Positions 21,524 to 29,678 of a stretch of 64,000 nucleotides of DNA are shown piece by piece. The notes under the pieces are model-generated. The model was given only the letters and a program-made list of their open reading frames with translations. It had not been told where the DNA came from and ran no database searches. Numbering within the stretch: the stretch's first letter is position 1; each line of letters begins with the position of its first letter. Source of the DNA: Escherichia coli (GTDB lineage: Bacteria; Pseudomonadota; Gammaproteobacteria; Enterobacterales; Enterobacteriaceae); NCBI RefSeq assembly GCF_003334335.1, contig NZ_QOWQ01000015.1; one strand, given 5' to 3'. A program made the translations under genes and the position numbers.

Positions 21524-22789
21524 ATGCTCACGAAAAAGAAATGGGCGTTATTTAGTCTATTAACACTGTGTGGCGGTACAATTTATAAATTACCGTCGCT
21601 GAAAGATGCGTTTTATATCCCGATGCAGGAATATTTCCATTTGACCAATGGTCAAATTGGTAATGCTATGTCGGTAAACTCATTTGTCACCACAGTGGGC
21701 TTTTTTCTGTCTATTTATTTTGCCGATAAACTACCGCGCAGATACACCATGTCATTCTCACTCATTGCGACAGGATTACTGGGTGTTTATTTGACGACAA
21801 TGCCGGGGTATTGGGGCATCCTCTTTGTCTGGGCGCTATTTGGCGTTACTTGCGACATGATGAACTGGCCGGTCTTGCTCAAGTCGGTAAGTCGATTGGG
21901 CAATAGCGAACAACAAGGTCGGTTGTTTGGCTTCTTCGAAACAGGGCGTGGCATTGTCGATACCGTGGTGGCATTTTCTGCGTTGGCAGTATTTACCTGG
22001 TTTGGCAGTGGCTTATTAGGTTTTAAAGCAGGCATCTGGTTCTATTCCCTTATTGTGATTGCCGTAGGCATTATTATTTTCTTTGTCCTGAATGACAAAG
22101 AAGAGGCACCGTCCGTTGAGGTGAAAAAAGAAGACGGAGCATCGAAAAACACCAGTATGACCTCGGTGCTGAAAGACAAAACTATCTGGCTTATCGCTTT
22201 TAACGTCTTCTTCGTTTACGCGGTTTACTGTGGCCTGACATTCTTCATTCCATTCCTGAAAAACATCTATCTATTGCCCGTTGCGCTGGTGGGGGCTTAC
22301 GGCATCATTAACCAATACTGTCTGAAAATGATTGGTGGACCGATTGGTGGCATGATTTCAGATAAGATCCTGAAATCGCCAAGTAAATATCTATGCTACA
22401 CCTTTATCATTAGTACCGCTGCGCTCGTACTGTTGATTATGCTGCCGCACGAAAGTATGCCGGTCTATTTAGGGATGGCATGTACGCTGGGCTTTGGCGC
22501 GATAGTCTTTACACAGCGAGCCGTATTTTTTGCACCTATCGGCGAAGCAAAAATTGCTGAAAATAAAACAGGTGCGGCGATGGCGTTGGGTAGCTTTATT
22601 GGTTACGCTCCGGCGATGTTCTGCTTCAGTCTGTATGGCTACATTCTGGATTTAAATCCGGGGATTATTGGCTACAAAATCGTGTTTGGCATTATGGCCT
22701 GCTTCGCATTCAGTGGTGCGGTGGTTTCCGTAATGCTGGTTAAGCGTATTAGCCAACGTAAGAAAGAGATGCTGGCGGCTGAAGCTTAA
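21524..22789 (+). CDS. yihN: Putative MFS transporter YihN
   Basis: 421-aa ORF, highly hydrophobic with multiple predicted TM segments; recognised by recall. Confidence 0.88.
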   Translation: MLTKKKWALFSLLTLCGGTIYKLPSLKDAFYIPMQEYFHLTNGQIGNAMSVNSFVTTVGFFLSIYFADKLPRRYTMSFSLIATGLLGVYLTTMPGYWGILFVWALFGVTCDMMNWPVLLKSVSRLGNSEQQGRLFGFFETGRGIVDTVVAFSALAVFTWFGSGLLGFKAGIWFYSLIVIAVGIIIFFVLNDKEEAPSVEVKKEDGASKNTSMTSVLKDKTIWLIAFNVFFVYAVYCGLTFFIPFLKNIYLLPVALVGAYGIINQYCLKMIGGPIGGMISDKILKSPSKYLCYTFIISTAALVLLIMLPHESMPVYLGMACTLGFGAIVFTQRAVFFAPIGEAKIAENKTGAAMALGSFIGYAPAMFCFSLYGYILDLNPGIIGYKIVFGIMACFAFSGAVVSVMLVKRISQRKKEMLAAEA

Positions 22790-22794
22790 TTAAT

Positions 22795-22872
<78 letters not shown>

Positions 22873-22879
22873 TTTCACA

Positions 22880-23572
22880 TCAGAAGAAATACTTCGTCCC
22901 GATACGGATCTGGTTTTGCTCGCGGTGGTACGGTTCGACGTTGCGGTCTAACCAGCGCAATTCGAAATAAGGGAGCCAGTGTTCATTAATACGGTAACGG
23001 AAGGTGTTAGTGATTTCCCAATGATGATCTTTCCCGTTGCTACTATTAAAGTCATTCACTCGCATGAAGTAATGTGGCTCAAATGTATAGGAAAATTTAT
23101 CGGTGATTTTAAAATTCCAGTAGGTGCCAATTTCATAGGTGTCATTATTATCCAGTTCCCCGCTCAAATCTGTTGAACTATAGTTATTATGGTTATAGCG
23201 ATTTCGTACTGTCAGATTAAACCATGGTACAAATTTATAGTTGACGTCCAGATACACTGCACCACCCGAACCGATACTCTTATCATTAATTAAGCCACCG
23301 GGCTGGATGGTTAATTTATCGGTTGGTTTAAATAACGGATACCAGCCTTCAATTTCGTTATATCCATGTTTTAGTTCATCTTCTCGCTGAAAGTTGTAGG
23401 TATTGGTTAACATAATACCCGCGCCCATATCGAAGTTATAACCCACACGTAGCATAACCTCGCCCTGATCGGAGGCAAGATTATATGCCTCCCTGTTTTC
23501 GACGTATGCGCCAGCAAATACCGAGGCAGAGGTCAGAGAAGATAATAAAATTATTGCATTAATCTTTTTCAT
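22880..23572 (-). CDS. ompL: Outer membrane porin OmpL
   Basis: Start placed at ATG 23572 (MKKINAIILLSSLTSASVFA signal peptide, 230 aa); C-terminal aromatic residues (...GTKYFF) typical of beta-barrel OMPs. Confidence 0.9.
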   Translation of the reverse strand: MKKINAIILLSSLTSASVFAGAYVENREAYNLASDQGEVMLRVGYNFDMGAGIMLTNTYNFQREDELKHGYNEIEGWYPLFKPTDKLTIQPGGLINDKSIGSGGAVYLDVNYKFVPWFNLTVRNRYNHNNYSSTDLSGELDNNDTYEIGTYWNFKITDKFSYTFEPHYFMRVNDFNSSNGKDHHWEITNTFRYRINEHWLPYFELRWLDRNVEPYHREQNQIRIGTKYFF

Positions 23573-23639
23573 AATAAGTCCATTTTTTAAACGTAGGGAG
23601 GCCGCCACCCACCAGGATGGAAATAGCGGCTATTGACAT

Positions 23640-25043
23640 TTATAACGTTACGGAAGCCGTTTTTTCTTCTGTCGCCATCTCTTTATTTTTGCGTTGGTTG
23701 ATTTCCTCAATAATCAATGCAAACCGTTTTTCATTGAGTGTGTAAAAGAATCCCATCGTCAATGCAGCAATAATTGCCAGTGCACAAGGCCAGATAAAAA
23801 TGAGCTGACGCAAACCCTGTAATGTCGCATCGCTTTGCGCGATGTTGGGAACATAACCAATTTGCGTCAGCATAATGCCTGGCAAGAAGCCAGCAAGTGC
23901 GGCAGAAATTTTACGAAAGAAGGTATAACCGGTATAAACAGAACCTTCGGCACGAATACCGGTTTTCCATTCACCGTAATCTACGGTATCTGGTACCAGT
24001 GCCCAGTTCAGGCTGTTTACAAAGGCCGTGCCAAAAAAGGCGACACAAGAGAACATGACGAAAGTGAAAGAGTTACTTCCCCAGAAATAATTCAGTATAT
24101 CACCCACCGCCCACAGCACCATGCCAGCCAGATAAACCTGTTTTTTACCAAAACATTTTACAGTTAATGGCACCAGTAATACGCCGATGAGGATGCATCC
24201 CATACTGAAGAATCCCATCCACGACAATAAATTAATATCATTCAGCACATACTGGGTGTAATAGACCTGAATCGCCAGTTTGATATTAAATGCCGCCAGG
24301 GTACACAAGTTAGCAATGCATAAAACCAGCAATGGCGGATTCCGAAATATCGCGCAAAATGATTTGAGAATACTGGCTTTATGTCCGGTTGGCGTTGTGT
24401 CCACATAATGCTCTTTGACGCCTCTGTAGCACAGCATCATAAAAATAAAGCCGCCAATGGAGAACATAAGTGCCGCACAGGCATAACCGACGGTTGAGTC
24501 AGAAAAAAGCGACTGCAACGGAATAAACGCCACGGTACAAATCAATAGCCCTATGGTTGCACCACCCTGGCGGTAAGCCGCGAGCTGCGCGCGCTCATTC
24601 GGGTTTTTGGTAATTGCCGGGATCATCGCACCATACGAGCAGTTCATCAGACTGTATGAAAGTCCAAACATCATAAACAGCGCGGTGGCAATCGTCGTTT
24701 TAACCGGCAAACAAAAGGTGGTGGCGATAAACTGGAGCGTTGCAATTAACGCCGCCGGAACCGCTGCATATAAAATAAAGGGACGAAATTTGCCTTTAGG
24801 CCCAATATTTTTCCGCGAGTCGAGTAAAAATCCGGTGAGCATATCGGTAAACGCGGTAAAAAACTTCGCCACCAGAAAGATAATCCCGCCATAGTAAGCA
24901 GGCATCCCTAATTCATCGGTATAAAATTTGAGGAGATACAGAGTACCGATGCAGAGCATTAAATTCGAACCGACGTCGCCCATACCATAGGCGATTTTTT
25001 CCCGCAGATTCAGTTTTAATGTCAGTGGATTATGGTCAGACAT
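23640..25043 (-). CDS. yihO: GPH-family sulfoquinovose/glycoside:cation symporter YihO
   Basis: Start placed at ATG 25043 (MSDHNPL..., 467 aa) with AAGGAG Shine-Dalgarno; polytopic membrane protein; strong paralogy to adjacent yihP. Confidence 0.9.
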   Translation of the reverse strand: MSDHNPLTLKLNLREKIAYGMGDVGSNLMLCIGTLYLLKFYTDELGMPAYYGGIIFLVAKFFTAFTDMLTGFLLDSRKNIGPKGKFRPFILYAAVPAALIATLQFIATTFCLPVKTTIATALFMMFGLSYSLMNCSYGAMIPAITKNPNERAQLAAYRQGGATIGLLICTVAFIPLQSLFSDSTVGYACAALMFSIGGFIFMMLCYRGVKEHYVDTTPTGHKASILKSFCAIFRNPPLLVLCIANLCTLAAFNIKLAIQVYYTQYVLNDINLLSWMGFFSMGCILIGVLLVPLTVKCFGKKQVYLAGMVLWAVGDILNYFWGSNSFTFVMFSCVAFFGTAFVNSLNWALVPDTVDYGEWKTGIRAEGSVYTGYTFFRKISAALAGFLPGIMLTQIGYVPNIAQSDATLQGLRQLIFIWPCALAIIAALTMGFFYTLNEKRFALIIEEINQRKNKEMATEEKTASVTL

Positions 25044-25085
25044 AATCACTCCTTATAACGCCCCGCAGGGCGTCGTTTATTATTA

Positions 25086-26471
25086 TTACGCCGTGCGTTT
25101 ACGGGCTTCTATCTCTTCCACAATGCGGACATACATCTTCTCGTTCAGGCTGTAGAAGCAACCCATCGCCACAATGGTGACTACCGCCAGTGCGCTTGGG
25201 TAGATGAAGATCAACTGGCGTAACCCTTCAATGGTGTGGTCAGCCTGTGCGACGTTCGGCACATAGCCAATTTGTGTCAGCATCCAGCCGGGGAAGAAAC
25301 CAGCCAGCGCCTGAGACACTTTGCGAAAGAAGGTAAAACCGGTGTAGACCGTTCCTTCCGAACGCACGCCGGTGCGCCACTCGCCGTACTCGACGGTGTC
25401 GGAAACCAGCGCCCAGTTCAGGCTGTTAACAAACGCTGAGCCAAAGAACGCCAGGCAGGAGAACGCCACGAAGCTGACCGAACCGCCGCCGAAGAAATAG
25501 TTGAGCAGATCGCCCAGCACCCAAATCAGCAGGCCGCCGATATAAACTTTCTTCTTGCCAAAACGTCTGACTGAGGCAGGCATCAGGAATACGCCGATGA
25601 AAATACAGCCCATGCTGAAAAATCCCATATACGACAACAGGATGGGATCGTTAAGCACGTACTGGGTGTAATAGACCTGGATGGCGAGCTTGACGTTAAA
25701 CGCCCCTAAAGTGCAGAGGTTGGCAATGCACAGAATGAACAGCGGGCGGTTACCCGCAATTGCGCGGAAAGATTGCAGCAGGCCCGGCTTTTGCGCCGGA
25801 TTAGCAGGCTGGGTTTCGACATAACGCTCTTTCACGCCCGAGTAGCAGATCCACATAAACAGCAGGCCAAACAGTGAAAACAGCGTGGCGGCGAAGATAT
25901 AGCCAAGTTGCTGATTACCTTCGATAAGATTCATAACTGGCACGAATCCCACCGTGCACAGCAGCAGGCCCAGCGTAGCGCCGCCCTGACGCCATGCCGC
26001 CAGTGAGGCGCGTTCGTTGGGGTTTTTGGTGATAGCGGGAACCATTGCGCCGTAGGAGCAGTTCATCATGCTGAAAAACAGTCCGTAAAGCATAAACAGA
26101 ATAGTGGCCATCACCGTTTTACCGGTGACATCAAACGGTGTGCCGACAAAGTTGGCGATCGCCAGTAAGGTGACCGGGAATGACGCATACAGAATAAAAG
26201 GACGGAACTTACCTTTTGGACCGATCTTGCGTCGGGAATCCAACATAATGCCGGTACCCATATCGGTAAACGCAGTAAAGAATTTTGAAATCAAAAAGAT
26301 AATGCCGCCATAGGTGCCTGGCAGCCCCAGAACGTCGGTATAAAACTTCAAAAGATAAAGCGTACCGATATCCAGCAGGATGTTAGAGGCCAGGTCGCCA
26401 ATACCGTAAGAGAGTTTCTCTTTAAAGGGCAGGCGTAAAGTTGCTGGATCTTCCGTTGTGATGTGACTCAT
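25086..26471 (-). CDS. yihP: GPH-family transporter YihP (putative sulfonate/glycoside transporter)
   Basis: Start placed at ATG 26471 (MSHITTEDP..., 461 aa), preceded by AGGGAG Shine-Dalgarno; alternative upstream starts at 26492 (ATG, 468 aa) and 26504 (GTG); paralog of yihO. Confidence 0.85.
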   Translation of the reverse strand: MSHITTEDPATLRLPFKEKLSYGIGDLASNILLDIGTLYLLKFYTDVLGLPGTYGGIIFLISKFFTAFTDMGTGIMLDSRRKIGPKGKFRPFILYASFPVTLLAIANFVGTPFDVTGKTVMATILFMLYGLFFSMMNCSYGAMVPAITKNPNERASLAAWRQGGATLGLLLCTVGFVPVMNLIEGNQQLGYIFAATLFSLFGLLFMWICYSGVKERYVETQPANPAQKPGLLQSFRAIAGNRPLFILCIANLCTLGAFNVKLAIQVYYTQYVLNDPILLSYMGFFSMGCIFIGVFLMPASVRRFGKKKVYIGGLLIWVLGDLLNYFFGGGSVSFVAFSCLAFFGSAFVNSLNWALVSDTVEYGEWRTGVRSEGTVYTGFTFFRKVSQALAGFFPGWMLTQIGYVPNVAQADHTIEGLRQLIFIYPSALAVVTIVAMGCFYSLNEKMYVRIVEEIEARKRTA

Positions 26472-26516
26472 CGATGTTCTCCCTTTGCCCATGAGTTTCC
26501 CCACGGGCGGATGTGA

Positions 26517-28553
26517 TTAGATGCTTTTTAACGACGCGAACAGTGCCGCCCATTCGCTATCGGCGCGATAAAAGACCGGCGGCTTGCCGATGGGCGCATT
26601 AACGGTAACTTCCCCGCCCCGGAACGCTTCACCCGTCCAGGCGTGGACCCAGTTATCCTCCGGCAGATAGAGCGTCCAGTCGCTACGGCCTTCTTCATGC
26701 ACCGGAGCGACCAGAATGTCGCGACCTAACAGGTACTGATATTTCAGGGTGTAAGTGTGCGCATCGTCTTCGTAATGCAGGAACAGCGGGCGCATAACCG
26801 GCAGGCCGGACTTCGCATTCAGCGCGACGGCCTCTTTCAGGTAAGGTTTCAGGGTGGTGAAGACGGTGGTCATACGGGCGAAATGGGCGATGGTTTCTGC
26901 GTCGCCGTCAAACTGCCAGTTGTCGCCAGGACGGTTACCTTCGTGGGTGCGCATCATCGGCGTGAAGGCGCTGAAATCGCACCAGCGCAGCAGCAGCTCT
27001 TTGCTGCGCTTCATCTCAAACAGGGTGGTGTAACCGCCAATGTCGCTGTGGTGCAGGCCATGTCCGGTCATTGCCAGCGACAGCGCCGCCGGGACAACCG
27101 ACGCCAGGCCATCGTCGAGACTCCAGTCGACGTTCTGGTCGCCCGCCCACATCATGGTGGAGTATTTCTGGCTACCGGTAGAACCGGCGCGCATAAAGAA
27201 AAGGATCTCGCCGAGCTTGCCCGTTTCTTCAAGGGCTTCGTAGTTACACTTCGCCCACAGCGCAGGCCAGGCGTTATGCATAATTTCGGCACTGACGCCG
27301 TTATGCAGGTACGTGTCGGTGGGCAGATACTCGCCGAAGTCAGCCATCCAGCCGCCGCAGCCGAGTTCAATCATGTTCTTTTTGATCACTTCCTTGAACC
27401 AGGCGTAGGCTTCTGGATTAGTGAGATCGACAACGCCGCCGTAAAACTCGCCAAACTCCACCAGATAGTCACCGCCAGAGGCATCTTTTGCCAGATAGCC
27501 GTGTTGTGCCGCTTCTTCGCAGAGATCTTTATCGCTGGCAACATACGGGTTGATATAGGCCAGGAACTGCACGCCCTCCTGATTCCACTGCTTAATGCGT
27601 GAATCCAGTTGCGGGTAGTTTTCGCTGTTCCACTTCCAGTTCCACATCACGCGTTTGCCAAAAGAGGTCATACGAATACCGGACCAGTCCTGCGCCCAGA
27701 TGCCGTTGACCTTCACGCCCGCGTTACGCATGGTGTCCAGTTTCTTCTGGCACACTTCCGTCCCGCCCTGAATGCCGAGCGTTACTCCGTCATAAATCCA
27801 GTCGGGCAGTTCTGGCTGGCGTCCCAGCAGGGCGGTTAATTTTTCCAGCAGGGAAATGTATGTGTCAGCACATTCAAAACGCAGCGTTGCTTTGTCTTCC
27901 CACAGCGCCAGTTCATGGTATTCCGGGGCACTAAAGTCGAAGTTCATATAGCAACTGTTATCAACATGGCAGTAATACTTCTGCGTGCTGACAAACGTAG
28001 GCTGTGGGAAGAAAGTCCAGTAATAGTCGCCGCCCGCATTTTCTTTGCAGTCGGCCTGCCAGGTGACATAGGTTTGTTTGTTGCGACCAACGCCTTGTTC
28101 ACTGGTCCATAGCGGGAACGGTTTGCCACGCAGATCGAAGTAGGAAAACTGTTCGCCGCAGCCGTAGATATGGTCCTCTGGTTGAGCGGCAAGGCGCAGC
28201 CAGATACGGTTGTGGTTAAGGTTGTCGTTTTGTAGTTCCAGCAATAAACGCCCCTGATCGTCGGCAGAGATATTCAGCGTGGCGCTAATGTCAGAACCAC
28301 GGCTGAAATGAATTAACCAACCATCCGGTGACTGGCTGACGATGGCGTCGGTAAGCGCAATTTTCTCCTGTAGTTTATCTTTAATGCTGAAATTACCGCG
28401 GAACATATCGATATCCGCTATACCTGAGCCAATCCATAAACAAGGATTATCTTTGCTATGGGTTAAAATAAGACGTTGTTGAAAATGTAGGGTAAAACTG
28501 TCGTTATTCTGATGAAATTGAAAATCTAATAACTGTGGACGTGGCGTATCCAT
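26517..28553 (-). CDS. yihQ: Sulfoquinovosidase (glycoside hydrolase family 31) YihQ
   Basis: 678-aa ORF; GH31 catalytic-region sequence (WQDWSG... GGWMADFGE); recognised by recall. Confidence 0.93.
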   Translation of the reverse strand: MDTPRPQLLDFQFHQNNDSFTLHFQQRLILTHSKDNPCLWIGSGIADIDMFRGNFSIKDKLQEKIALTDAIVSQSPDGWLIHFSRGSDISATLNISADDQGRLLLELQNDNLNHNRIWLRLAAQPEDHIYGCGEQFSYFDLRGKPFPLWTSEQGVGRNKQTYVTWQADCKENAGGDYYWTFFPQPTFVSTQKYYCHVDNSCYMNFDFSAPEYHELALWEDKATLRFECADTYISLLEKLTALLGRQPELPDWIYDGVTLGIQGGTEVCQKKLDTMRNAGVKVNGIWAQDWSGIRMTSFGKRVMWNWKWNSENYPQLDSRIKQWNQEGVQFLAYINPYVASDKDLCEEAAQHGYLAKDASGGDYLVEFGEFYGGVVDLTNPEAYAWFKEVIKKNMIELGCGGWMADFGEYLPTDTYLHNGVSAEIMHNAWPALWAKCNYEALEETGKLGEILFFMRAGSTGSQKYSTMMWAGDQNVDWSLDDGLASVVPAALSLAMTGHGLHHSDIGGYTTLFEMKRSKELLLRWCDFSAFTPMMRTHEGNRPGDNWQFDGDAETIAHFARMTTVFTTLKPYLKEAVALNAKSGLPVMRPLFLHYEDDAHTYTLKYQYLLGRDILVAPVHEEGRSDWTLYLPEDNWVHAWTGEAFRGGEVTVNAPIGKPPVFYRADSEWAALFASLKSI

Positions 28554-28751
28554 AACTAATCTCCATAGAGTTGAGAACGAGATTGTTGCCTTCCTGTTAT
28601 TACAGGCTTATGTAAAATGATTCTCATAAAACTGATATATAAAAACTTTACAGAAGCTGAGCTGTTTTTAACTTAATAAATTGAAGATACATAATGTTGC
28701 CTTTAGCGAGTGAAATGTTCTTCAATGATTTTGACTGCTAATCAATACAAG

Positions 28752-29678
28752 TTATTTTCTCTGTCCGTAAATATTAAAAAACAGGCGGTGCGGTTTTCCT
28801 GATTCCAGTAATAATAAGTCGATACCTGAATTAAAGGCGTTAGGCGGGCAACTCATAGGTTCAACTGCCAGTCCCTGACGCTGTAATTTTTCACCGCTAT
28901 AAACCTGCACCCAGAGTTGATCGGAACAAAGGCTTACCGAAAGCGCCTGCTGTGGATGGGTAATGGTCATTTCCCACAAATCATTAGCGGTTTTAAAGGT
29001 GTGGTCGATTTTTGTCGCGGCTATTTTTTTCGCCTGCGTGAAATTTAAATCCAGCTCATCAACGTGGTGAAGCGTTGTCGGATTCGCGTGCTCATCGACG
29101 GCATAAACCTGGTTTGCCGGAAGCTGGAACAGATATTCATCAACAGATGTTAAGTTGCAGGTTAAATAAGGATGAATACCCACGCCATAAGGCGCTGCGA
29201 CAGTGCCGATATTCTGGCTTGCGATCTCAACGGAAAGACCCGTGTGTGCGTTGAGCGAATAAACAACTTGTGAAGCCAGCATAAACGGATAGCCGTAACT
29301 GGGCGGCAGAAAAGCTGTCAGGGTAACGCTGGTGGCGGTTAATTCACTAATTTGCCAGTCTCGCCAGGCAAGCAGCCCGTGAATAGCGGCTTTTGAACTA
29401 TGTTCATTAATGGGTAACTGATATTCCTGCCCCTGATAGCGGTAACAGCCGTTGGCGATCCGGTTCGGCCACGGAATAAGCACTTTACCCAGATGCGCCA
29501 GCGGCATCTCTTCGGGTTTGTGCGGGATGACTAAATGACAACCCTGAAAGGTTAATTCAGCCAGACCAGCACCGACGGTCACAATGGTCGCGTGATAATC
29601 CCCCGCGGCAAGTGAAACGGTCTGTCCACTGCAATGCATATTGGTGATTTGCATACAAGGCACCTTAATTAACGACAT
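28752..29678 (-). CDS. yihR: Aldose-1-epimerase family protein YihR (sulfoquinovose mutarotase)
   Basis: 308-aa ORF; recognised by recall. Confidence 0.9.
   Translation of the reverse strand: MSLIKVPCMQITNMHCSGQTVSLAAGDYHATIVTVGAGLAELTFQGCHLVIPHKPEEMPLAHLGKVLIPWPNRIANGCYRYQGQEYQLPINEHSSKAAIHGLLAWRDWQISELTATSVTLTAFLPPSYGYPFMLASQVVYSLNAHTGLSVEIASQNIGTVAAPYGVGIHPYLTCNLTSVDEYLFQLPANQVYAVDEHANPTTLHHVDELDLNFTQAKKIAATKIDHTFKTANDLWEMTITHPQQALSVSLCSDQLWVQVYSGEKLQRQGLAVEPMSCPPNAFNSGIDLLLLESGKPHRLFFNIYGQRK

Follow-up and report, generated by a model that had tools for sequence, protein, structure and literature searches.

The yihP-yihO locus

Two adjacent transporter genes, yihP and yihO, lie head to tail on the minus strand of the window, the 64,000-nucleotide stretch of Escherichia coli DNA that was analyzed, with position 26471 at the ATG of yihP and position 23640 at the stop codon of yihO. 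The genes and features are as follows:

22880..23572, minus strand: ompL, porin gene, downstream of yihO (annotation; NF007434 OmpL equivalog, 472 bits)
23640..25043, minus strand: yihO, open reading frame of 467 aa, GPH-family (MFS_2) transporter, annotated yihO in K-12
25057..25074, minus strand: GC-rich stem-loop (fold prediction) in the 42-nt yihP-yihO spacer
25086..26471, minus strand: yihP, open reading frame of 461 aa, GPH-family transporter and yihO paralogue, annotated yihP in K-12
26517..28553, minus strand: yihQ, sulfoquinovosidase (GH31), upstream of yihP (annotation)

An alignment of the window with E. coli K-12 MG1655 shows 100% identity over 4 kb; in that strain the genes carry the annotations yihO and yihP, and the encoded proteins are those of K-12 b3876 and b3877. 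Open reading frames and annotation place both genes inside the order ompL-yihOPQRSTUVW, so that the pair is a component of the K-12-type sulfo-EMP (yih) sulfoglycolysis cluster. Both genes are induced by sulfoquinovose (SQ) (PMC12608037), and their 42-nt spacing is of the kind expected for co-transcription.

This setting bears on an annotation used in Salmonella, which assigns the pair to the assembly or translocation of the O-antigen capsule and not to sulfonate transport. Salmonella yihO deletion mutants are widely used as capsule mutants and show poorer plant attachment and survival (PMC4265070), but use of the head group of the plant sulfolipid could account indirectly for these phenotypes on plants. 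The enzymes of the cluster, moreover, are assigned biochemically to sulfoglycolysis (annotations; PMC8006165), the genes respond to SQ, yihO is needed for growth on it (PMC6278857), and the nearest relatives of YihO and YihP are encoded in sulfo-TAL and glucuronide-utilization clusters. We consider a capsule role very improbable.

An ancient tandem duplication

By sequence criteria, YihO and YihP are members of the GPH:cation symporter family (TC 2.A.2). They score 529 and 537 bits against the TIGR00792 profile (curated cut-off 231.35), their orthologues carry precomputed Pfam MFS_2 (PF13347) matches, and MelB residues 3-438 align with residues 11-439 of YihO (E 8.3e-40). At 467 and 461 aa, both also fall within the length range of the family, about 450-480 aa. 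Among the GPH members of E. coli the two are the closest pair. The original prediction, which claimed near-identical stretches and a tandem duplication followed by divergence, proposed a pairwise alignment and a phylogeny; both were carried out. BLASTP aligns the proteins with 295/456 identities (65%), 81% positives and 3 gaps (623 bits, E = 0), and the four quoted motifs, GTLYLLKFYTD.LG, GGIIFL..KFFTAFTDM.TG, IGPKGKFRPFILYA and NCSYGAM.PAITKNPNERA, stand in register in both. The background of unrelated GPH members, fixed beforehand as the comparison that could overturn the claim, is far lower: MelB, UidB, YicJ and YagG of E. coli share 26-34% identity with YihO or YihP, and the claim survives. 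YicJ and YagG, the E. coli GPH pair that comes next in similarity, are 44% identical to each other.

In the phylogeny, which consists of neighbor-joining trees only, YihO and YihP are mutual closest relatives (O+P clade 100/100 bootstraps, P clade 95/100, O+P together with SftA-like sequences 98/100); the O copy of an Anaerobiospirillum metagenome-assembled genome forms a long, unstable branch. Of 72 loci, 60+ keep the order yihQ-yihP-yihO, among them loci of several Enterobacterales families and of the Anaerobiospirillum genome, and yihP stands directly downstream of yihQ in all species of our locus set. Synonymous sites between yihO and yihP are saturated (pS 0.76; dN 0.26), and therefore the split is old. 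The predicted tandem duplication with subsequent divergence is thus borne out by the fully supported clade, by head-to-tail order kept in >60 species and by the saturation of silent sites. Both genes evolve under strong purifying selection (dN/dS 0.03-0.05), and the within-genome identity of the two proteins, 57-71% in nine species, indicates that no concerted evolution has taken place. The paralogy, its tandem origin and its age, together with the selection and the conserved residues described below, we count as established.

Outside the O+P clade, the sequences nearest to it show 51% and 45-47% identity, and the clade is sister to the lone SftA-type transporter that Firmicutes sulfo-TAL clusters encode; SftA itself is the predicted SQ importer of the sulfo-TAL (sft) cluster of Bacillus aryabhattai SOS1 (PMC7491151). 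The closest outgroup protein, P0121, is 51% identical to YihO and is the only GPH transporter of its cluster, which follows the B. aryabhattai sft gene order (transaldolase, DUF4867, GH31, isomerase, GntR, aldehyde dehydrogenase and a separate exporter; reference PMC7491151) and whose adjoining GH31 sulfoquinovosidase is 59% identical to YihQ. These relationships suggest a model in which one ancient tandem duplication of an SQ-type GPH (MFS_2) gene inside a sulfo-EMP cluster would have produced yihP and yihO, once this lineage had separated from that of the lone SftA-type transporter but before the cluster dispersed across Enterobacterales. From then on, strong purifying selection has maintained both copies, and no gene conversion has occurred between them.

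Could the paralogues instead have come from different donor lineages and been juxtaposed by horizontal transfer or recombination? Their GC3 values in the window differ (yihO 0.50, yihP 0.65), frequent recombination of the yih locus has been reported in E. coli (PMC12608037), and a foreign gene has refilled the yihO slot in Chimaeribacter, where yihP is kept and its neighbor is an SftA-type (importer-type) GPH gene whose product is 62% identical to P0121. However, the GC3 offset of yihP above yihO recurs in 58/60 species, which ties it to the genes themselves and not to a recent import into E. coli; YihO and YihP are monophyletic in all bootstraps, with the SftA type outside; and order and orientation are the same in all families sampled. 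The representative library showed no lineage with a single O-like or P-like copy, although its clustering at 50% identity could hide one. Assembly from different donors is accordingly a reading to which we give very little credence.

Conserved residues and the substrate pocket

The residues that couple transport in MelB are retained in both paralogues. The helix II proton-coupling Asp (MelB Asp59) corresponds to D67 in YihO and D70 in YihP, and the helix XI Lys (MelB Lys377) to K378 and K384; these positions, along with N27/N134, do not vary among the 64 O and 66 P sequences compared (residue roles from PMC8329300). The equivalents of the MelB sugar and cation sites are the same in O and P except for two Tyr/Phe swaps, Y130/F133 and Y373/F379.

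Residues fixed differently in the two clades are few, numbering 5 under a strict definition and 19 under a relaxed one, and 6 of the 19 cluster in the helix XI-equivalent region with modest significance (448/20000 permutations). Comparison with the outgroup gives these clade-specific sites a mixed polarity (one O-like, two P-like). Neofunctionalization of one copy was considered and left no clear sign, given the small number of strict sites and their mixed polarity. Near-identical pockets and so few clade-specific sites would fit similar substrates for YihO and YihP equally well.

A conserved hairpin in the spacer

The predicted stem-loop in the spacer, GACGCCC UGCG GGGCGUU, lies just upstream of the yihO Shine-Dalgarno sequence AAGGAG and was found in the spacers of ~45/63 species. 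Its nine pairs are 91% paired, as compared with 39-51% when the partners are slid, and compensatory changes occur at five pairs; the covariation score was reached by 0/500 shuffles. An Rfam scan of the region returned no match at the hairpin, its only hits being sub-threshold, REP-like naRNA4 matches outside the genes. A promoter consensus scan of 22700-28900 found promoter-like sites at chance level (10 vs 8.5), and terminator-like sites from the consensus scan of the same interval, mostly within coding sequence, were set aside as uninterpretable. A P::O fusion gene is present in a symbiont.

Transport roles of YihO and YihP

That YihO imports SQ rests on genetic evidence from the literature, in which a ΔyihO strain does not grow on SQ (PMC6278857). 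A specialization into importer and exporter, mentioned as possible in the original prediction, had been proposed before: the assignment of YihO as importer and YihP as exporter goes back to Denger et al. 2014, as cited in PMC6278857, and appears again in bioRxiv 10.1101/2021.11.10.468170, which describes YihP as "not experimentally characterized". The searchable literature yielded no transport assay for either protein, and no functional study of YihP was found in the literature searched. Both the 65% identity and the importer/exporter reading are already published; the observation on the pair is correct but ordinary, and with the duplication already in the literature it adds nothing to the published record.

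If YihO brings SQ in, YihP would carry the other sulfonate flux of the pathway, the export of 2,3-dihydroxypropanesulfonate (DHPS). For every SQ consumed, the cell has to release one DHPS. Chemically, DHPS is the C4-C6 fragment of SQ, and a nearly unchanged pocket could therefore recognize it. By inference, DHPS and export are the most likely substrate and direction for YihP. Counting against an exporter role, the GPH members known so far work as symporters and bring glycosides into the cell.

High similarity, the co-transcription-like spacing and co-induction would also be expected if the two copies were redundant, adding gene dosage, or formed one unit exchanging SQ inward for DHPS outward. 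This is hard to reconcile with the genetics: loss of yihO alone abolishes growth on SQ (PMC6278857), so that YihP cannot substitute for it, and antibiotic susceptibility in strain EV18 was changed by ΔyihO only, not by ΔyihP (bioRxiv 10.1101/2021.11.10.468170). Retention of both genes at dN/dS about 0.04 across a very old divergence, with clade-specific substitutions, also speaks against it, and we regard redundancy or an exchange unit as highly unlikely.

A more serious alternative is that the proteins are two importers with different preferences, YihO for instance taking up free SQ and YihP taking up SQ glycosides, such as sulfoquinovosyl glycerol, as a supply for the cytoplasmic YihQ encoded next door, with DHPS leaving through a TauE/SafE-family permease or an unlinked carrier. 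The GPH family (TIGR00792) is one of glycoside importers, the sugar- and cation-site equivalents of the two proteins are almost the same, yihP invariably follows yihQ, and the literature speaks of import of "SQ and its glycosides" with the carriers not assigned (PMC8006165). A TauE/SafE-family permease gene is present in the yih cluster of 17/69 species loci and 1297/5426 E. coli genomes, K-12 being among those without it. It lies between yihR and yihQ in about a third of long-cassette E. coli and is missing from the K-12-type cassette, whose yihR-yihQ spacer was searched for a tauE remnant with no convincing result. This exporter-family gene stands alongside intact yihP and yihO in 15 species loci and in 1297 E. 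coli genomes (CFSAN061763 is an example of a natural tauE+ strain), so that TauE and YihP are not simply interchangeable.

Against two importers, 52/69 clusters, K-12 included, contain no other candidate exporter and would then be left without one for a stoichiometric, charged end product. The SftA-type outgroup, furthermore, manages with one GPH transporter beside its sulfoquinovosidase. In favor of the exporter reading, Chimaeribacter keeps yihP while an importer-type gene occupies its yihO slot. Only two intact clusters are without yihP (L052 and L075); both carry the TauE/SafE permease, and they represent no more than one or two losses of yihP alongside TauE. Both also keep yihQ, so that the supply of glycosides there is independent of YihP. 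An interpretation of TauE in the yihP slot of these two clusters as clean non-orthologous displacement was withdrawn, since TauE usually co-occurs with yihP. Taken together, we judge the two-importer arrangement possible but doubtful. With YihP as exporter the comparative evidence is compatible, but not decisive.

The best explanation overall, and in our estimate about an even call, is an ancient in-cluster tandem duplication with YihO as SQ importer and YihP as putative DHPS exporter. A fuller version, offered tentatively and as somewhat short of even, is that YihP may be a GPH-fold duplicate of the SQ importer, physiologically reversed to export DHPS through recognition of the sulfonate-diol end in a near-unchanged pocket; its job would overlap with that of the polymorphic TauE/SafE permease, and the hairpin in the spacer would determine how strongly YihP is expressed relative to YihO. 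DHPS passes on to gut bacteria that produce sulfite and sulfide. The patterns that bear on the carrier roles are the TauE polymorphism in E. coli, the loss of yihP only in the company of TauE, the SftA-type gene in the yihO slot and the two Tyr/Phe pocket swaps.

Comparison with known transport systems

MelB (PDB 4M64, 7L16/7L17) and the glucuronide:H+ symporter UidB/GusB belong to the same family (TIGR00792) as YihO and YihP and align with them end to end, although at only 26-34% identity and with substrates that, unlike those of YihO and YihP, are not sulfonated. Equivalents of MelB Asp59, Lys377, Gly117, Thr121 (as Ser) and Thr373 are conserved. In contrast, the sugar-binding Asp19 and Asp124 are replaced by uncharged Asn, as in UidB, a change that would fit an anionic sulfonated substrate; the sugar ligands Lys18, Trp128 and Arg149 are replaced by Ser, Gly and Gln, and the Na+ ligands Asp55 and Asn58 both by Thr. 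From Thr at the Asp55 position, coupling to H+ is predicted.

SftA-type transporters share with YihO and YihP motifs such as YLLKFYTD, IGPxGKFRPFILY and FVNSLNWALVSD, but retain the Asp equivalent to MelB Asp55 where all O and P sequences have Thr. They further differ in being single-copy, with an unrelated exporter gene alongside. The TauE/SafE proteins (TSUP, PF01925), organosulfonate/sulfite exporters of other sulfoglycolysis clusters, are unrelated to YihP in fold and family, while the job proposed for them there, export of the C3 sulfonate, is the one proposed for YihP (PMC7491151; PMC8873060).

Two adjacent, closely related transporter genes

The sulfoglycolysis cluster ompL-yihOPQRSTU / yihV-csqR includes a pair of transporter genes, flanked by ompL and yihQ and separated by a spacer of 42 nt:

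23640-25043, minus strand: yihO, complete gene, 467 aa
25086-26471, minus strand: yihP, complete gene, 461 aa

The interval singled out in the original prediction ends exactly at the yihO stop and the yihP start, and the 4 kb around the pair matches E. coli K-12 MG1655 at 100% identity; there the genes are annotated yihO and yihP. The long near-identical stretches reported from the translations are borne out by BLASTP (295/456 identities, or 65%; 81% positives; 3 gaps), and every motif quoted for them is present in both proteins, in register. Compared with the remaining four K-12 GPH paralogues, MelB, UidB, YicJ and YagG, which serve as the family background, YihO and YihP are each 26-34% identical, and the second most similar E. 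coli GPH pair, YicJ/YagG, is 44% identical. The likeness is thus real and far above the family background. Both proteins exceed the cut-off of the curated GPH model TIGR00792 (529 bits for YihO and 537 for YihP; cut-off 231), neither matches an equivalog model, and both align end to end with the solved MelB (E 8e-40). Likeness and duplication are already known, the 65% identity being in print (PMC6278857; bioRxiv 10.1101/2021.11.10.468170; PMC8006165; PMC8873060).

Of 5426 complete E. coli genomes, 3907 contain the region at window 23000-27000. It varies to an unusual degree: identity across its 4 kb is only 90-95% in 447 genomes, and YihO protein variants at 87-89% identity occur. Where yihN and ompL converge, at window 22804-22876, each strand has a sub-threshold match to Rfam naRNA4 (40.6 and 23.7 bits, against a gathering score of 59.5); these most likely represent a REP-type palindromic element.

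Age and origin of the duplication

The nucleotide sequences of the two genes are 65% identical overall, a figure that falls to 40% at third codon positions, with saturated synonymous divergence (pS 0.76), a dN of 0.26 (Nei-Gojobori) and a longest common exact word of 20 nt. A scan of one genome per species yielded 72 loci, all from Enterobacterales save one Anaerobiospirillum MAG. By tblastn with the E. coli yih proteins as queries, the order yihQ-yihP-yihO is kept in more than 60 of them, in genera including Escherichia, Salmonella, Citrobacter, Enterobacter, Klebsiella, Kosakonia, Pantoea, Mixta, Rahnella, Yersinia, Serratia, Hafnia, Budvicia, Limnobaculum, Pectobacterium and Anaerobiospirillum. 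Inside any single genome YihO and YihP (O and P) are 57-71% identical, and therefore have not undergone concerted evolution.

A neighbour-joining tree of 147 sequences recovers O and P together as one clade in 100/100 bootstraps and the P clade in 95/100; the 64 O sequences from Enterobacterales group in a single clade, and a long basal branch leads to the Anaerobiospirillum O copy. With the O+P clade and the conserved gene order, the earlier proposal of tandem duplication followed by divergence is sound. When 1.8 billion cluster representatives were searched exhaustively with HMMER, the O+P family proved isolated, the nearest full-length outsider (P0121) being 51% identical, the next 39% and all others at most 36%. 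P0121 is the sole GPH of a cluster whose gene order matches that of the Bacillus aryabhattai sulfo-TAL (sft) cluster (PMC7491151) and which also encodes a separate exporter and a GH31 protein with 59% identity to YihQ; because of this setting it is taken as an SftA-type predicted sulfoquinovose (SQ) importer. P0126, the relative at 39%, belongs to a glucuronide-utilisation cluster. The parsimonious account is one tandem duplication of an SQ-type carrier, before the cluster spread in Enterobacterales.

In Ca. Symbiopectobacterium endolongispinus (L050:10001-11431) the pair is a single yihP::yihO fusion gene, whose first ~150 alignment columns are P-type (96-98% identity to YihP of the sister strain) and whose remaining columns are mostly O-type (91-98% identity to that strain's YihO), as would be expected of unequal crossing-over between tandem copies. 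The yihQ gene of this cluster is likewise split. The yihO frame of Salmonella diarizonae (L009:10001-11413) and both frames of Yersinia aldovae (L076:10001-12878) are interrupted in the assemblies, reflecting either pseudogenes or sequencing errors. Clusters of Yersinia, Serratia, Hafnia and Chimaeribacter encode an SftI-like isomerase (267 bits, under the 700-bit cut-off), a class II ketose-bisphosphate aldolase and a GalM-like epimerase instead of yihS/yihT; yihU, yihV, yihQ, yihP and yihO are kept, and the core pathway is therefore a hybrid:

L049:2913-6278 (Yersinia frederiksenii): yihS/yihT replacement; also in loci L055-L057, L060, L061, L066, L068, L071, L072 and L076

Unequal evolution of the two copies

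Orthologous comparisons give a dN/dS of 0.03-0.05 for both genes, and therefore neither is decaying. yihO evolves faster than yihP: YihP exceeds YihO in identity to the E. coli protein in 54 of 60 genomes (means 88% vs 78%), and E. coli YihO is especially divergent (79% identity to Citrobacter, vs 92% for YihP). GC3 is lower in yihO than in yihP in 58 of 60 species genomes, the gap being widest in E. coli. In the window this forms part of a compositional step between ompL and yihO (22880-25043; GC3 0.46 and 0.50) and yihP and yihQ (25086-28553; 0.65 and 0.64).

The spacer contains a GC-rich stem-loop immediately 5' of the yihO Shine-Dalgarno sequence:

25057-25074, minus strand: spacer hairpin

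About 45 of 63 species have it. Pairing across its nine pairs reaches 91%, vs 39-51% when the partners are slid, and five of the pairs show compensatory changes, with a covariation score reached by none of 500 shuffles. It has no U-tract, and the Rfam scan gave no match. The hairpin may stabilise the mRNA within the operon or, as a partial terminator, set the yihP:yihO-ompL ratio.

Proposed importer and exporter

YihO is considered the SQ importer because growth on SQ is lost in a delta-yihO strain, while YihP is described, with "most likely" or "may", as a putative exporter of 2,3-dihydroxypropanesulfonate (DHPS) (PMC6278857; bioRxiv 10.1101/2021.11.10.468170; PMC8006165; PMC8873060). SQ induces both genes (PMC12608037). 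The clusters of Lelliottia nimipressuralis and of one Enterobacter MAG lack yihP and have a TauE/SafE permease gene (PF01925, E 3e-34) between yihQ and yihO. TauE is a common accessory gene, unmentioned in a 2025 survey of yih cassette variants and present at two alternative positions in 17 of 69 species loci:

L085:7065-7940: TauE/SafE gene
L006:5504-6376: TauE/SafE gene

In 1297 of 5426 complete E. coli genomes it lies between yihR and yihQ, alongside intact yihP and yihO. K-12 and the window are without it, and their yihR-yihQ spacer (window 28554-28751) contains no clear remnant. That yihP is absent only where TauE exists (one or two events) lends slight support to an exporter role for YihP. 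In Chimaeribacter yihP is kept and a different GPH occupies the yihO slot (L066:11386-12819; matching genes in L071 and L072); its identity is 62% to P0121, the SftA-type protein, and 45-47% to O and P. We give an even chance to the model where YihO brings SQ in and YihP takes DHPS out. That both are importers, of SQ and of SQ glycosides, is a more doubtful proposal, kept alive by the frequent co-occurrence of TauE, yihP and yihO (both transporters in 15 of the 17 TauE-bearing loci), but one that would leave 52 of 69 clusters with no gene for exporting an end product that is charged and made one-for-one with SQ.

Comparison with characterised GPH carriers

MelB functional residues (PMC8329300) were mapped onto 64 O and 66 P sequences. 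The proton-site Asp (D67 in YihO, D70 in YihP) and the helix XI Lys are invariant in both clades, and pocket-equivalent positions differ only at Y130 (O) vs F133 (P), where the P state is derived, and Y373 vs F379. Since DHPS is the C4-C6 part of SQ, so similar a pocket is compatible with YihP as exporter; it fits two importers equally well. The MelB Na+ ligands Asp55 and Asn58 are replaced by Thr in every O and P sequence:

about 24846-24857, minus strand: YihO T63/T66
about 26265-26276, minus strand: YihP T66/T69

In contrast, every outgroup (relatives of the SftA and glucuronide types and the other GPH proteins of E. coli) keeps the Asp55-equivalent Asp. Thr at these positions is a derived state common to the O+P clade and suggests coupling to H+ rather than to Na+. 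The sequences, from which the direction of transport is not readable, indicate that YihO and YihP are probably two proton-coupled carriers of anionic, closely related substrates, and at MelB's two sugar-binding Asp positions O and P have Asn, as does the glucuronide carrier UidB.
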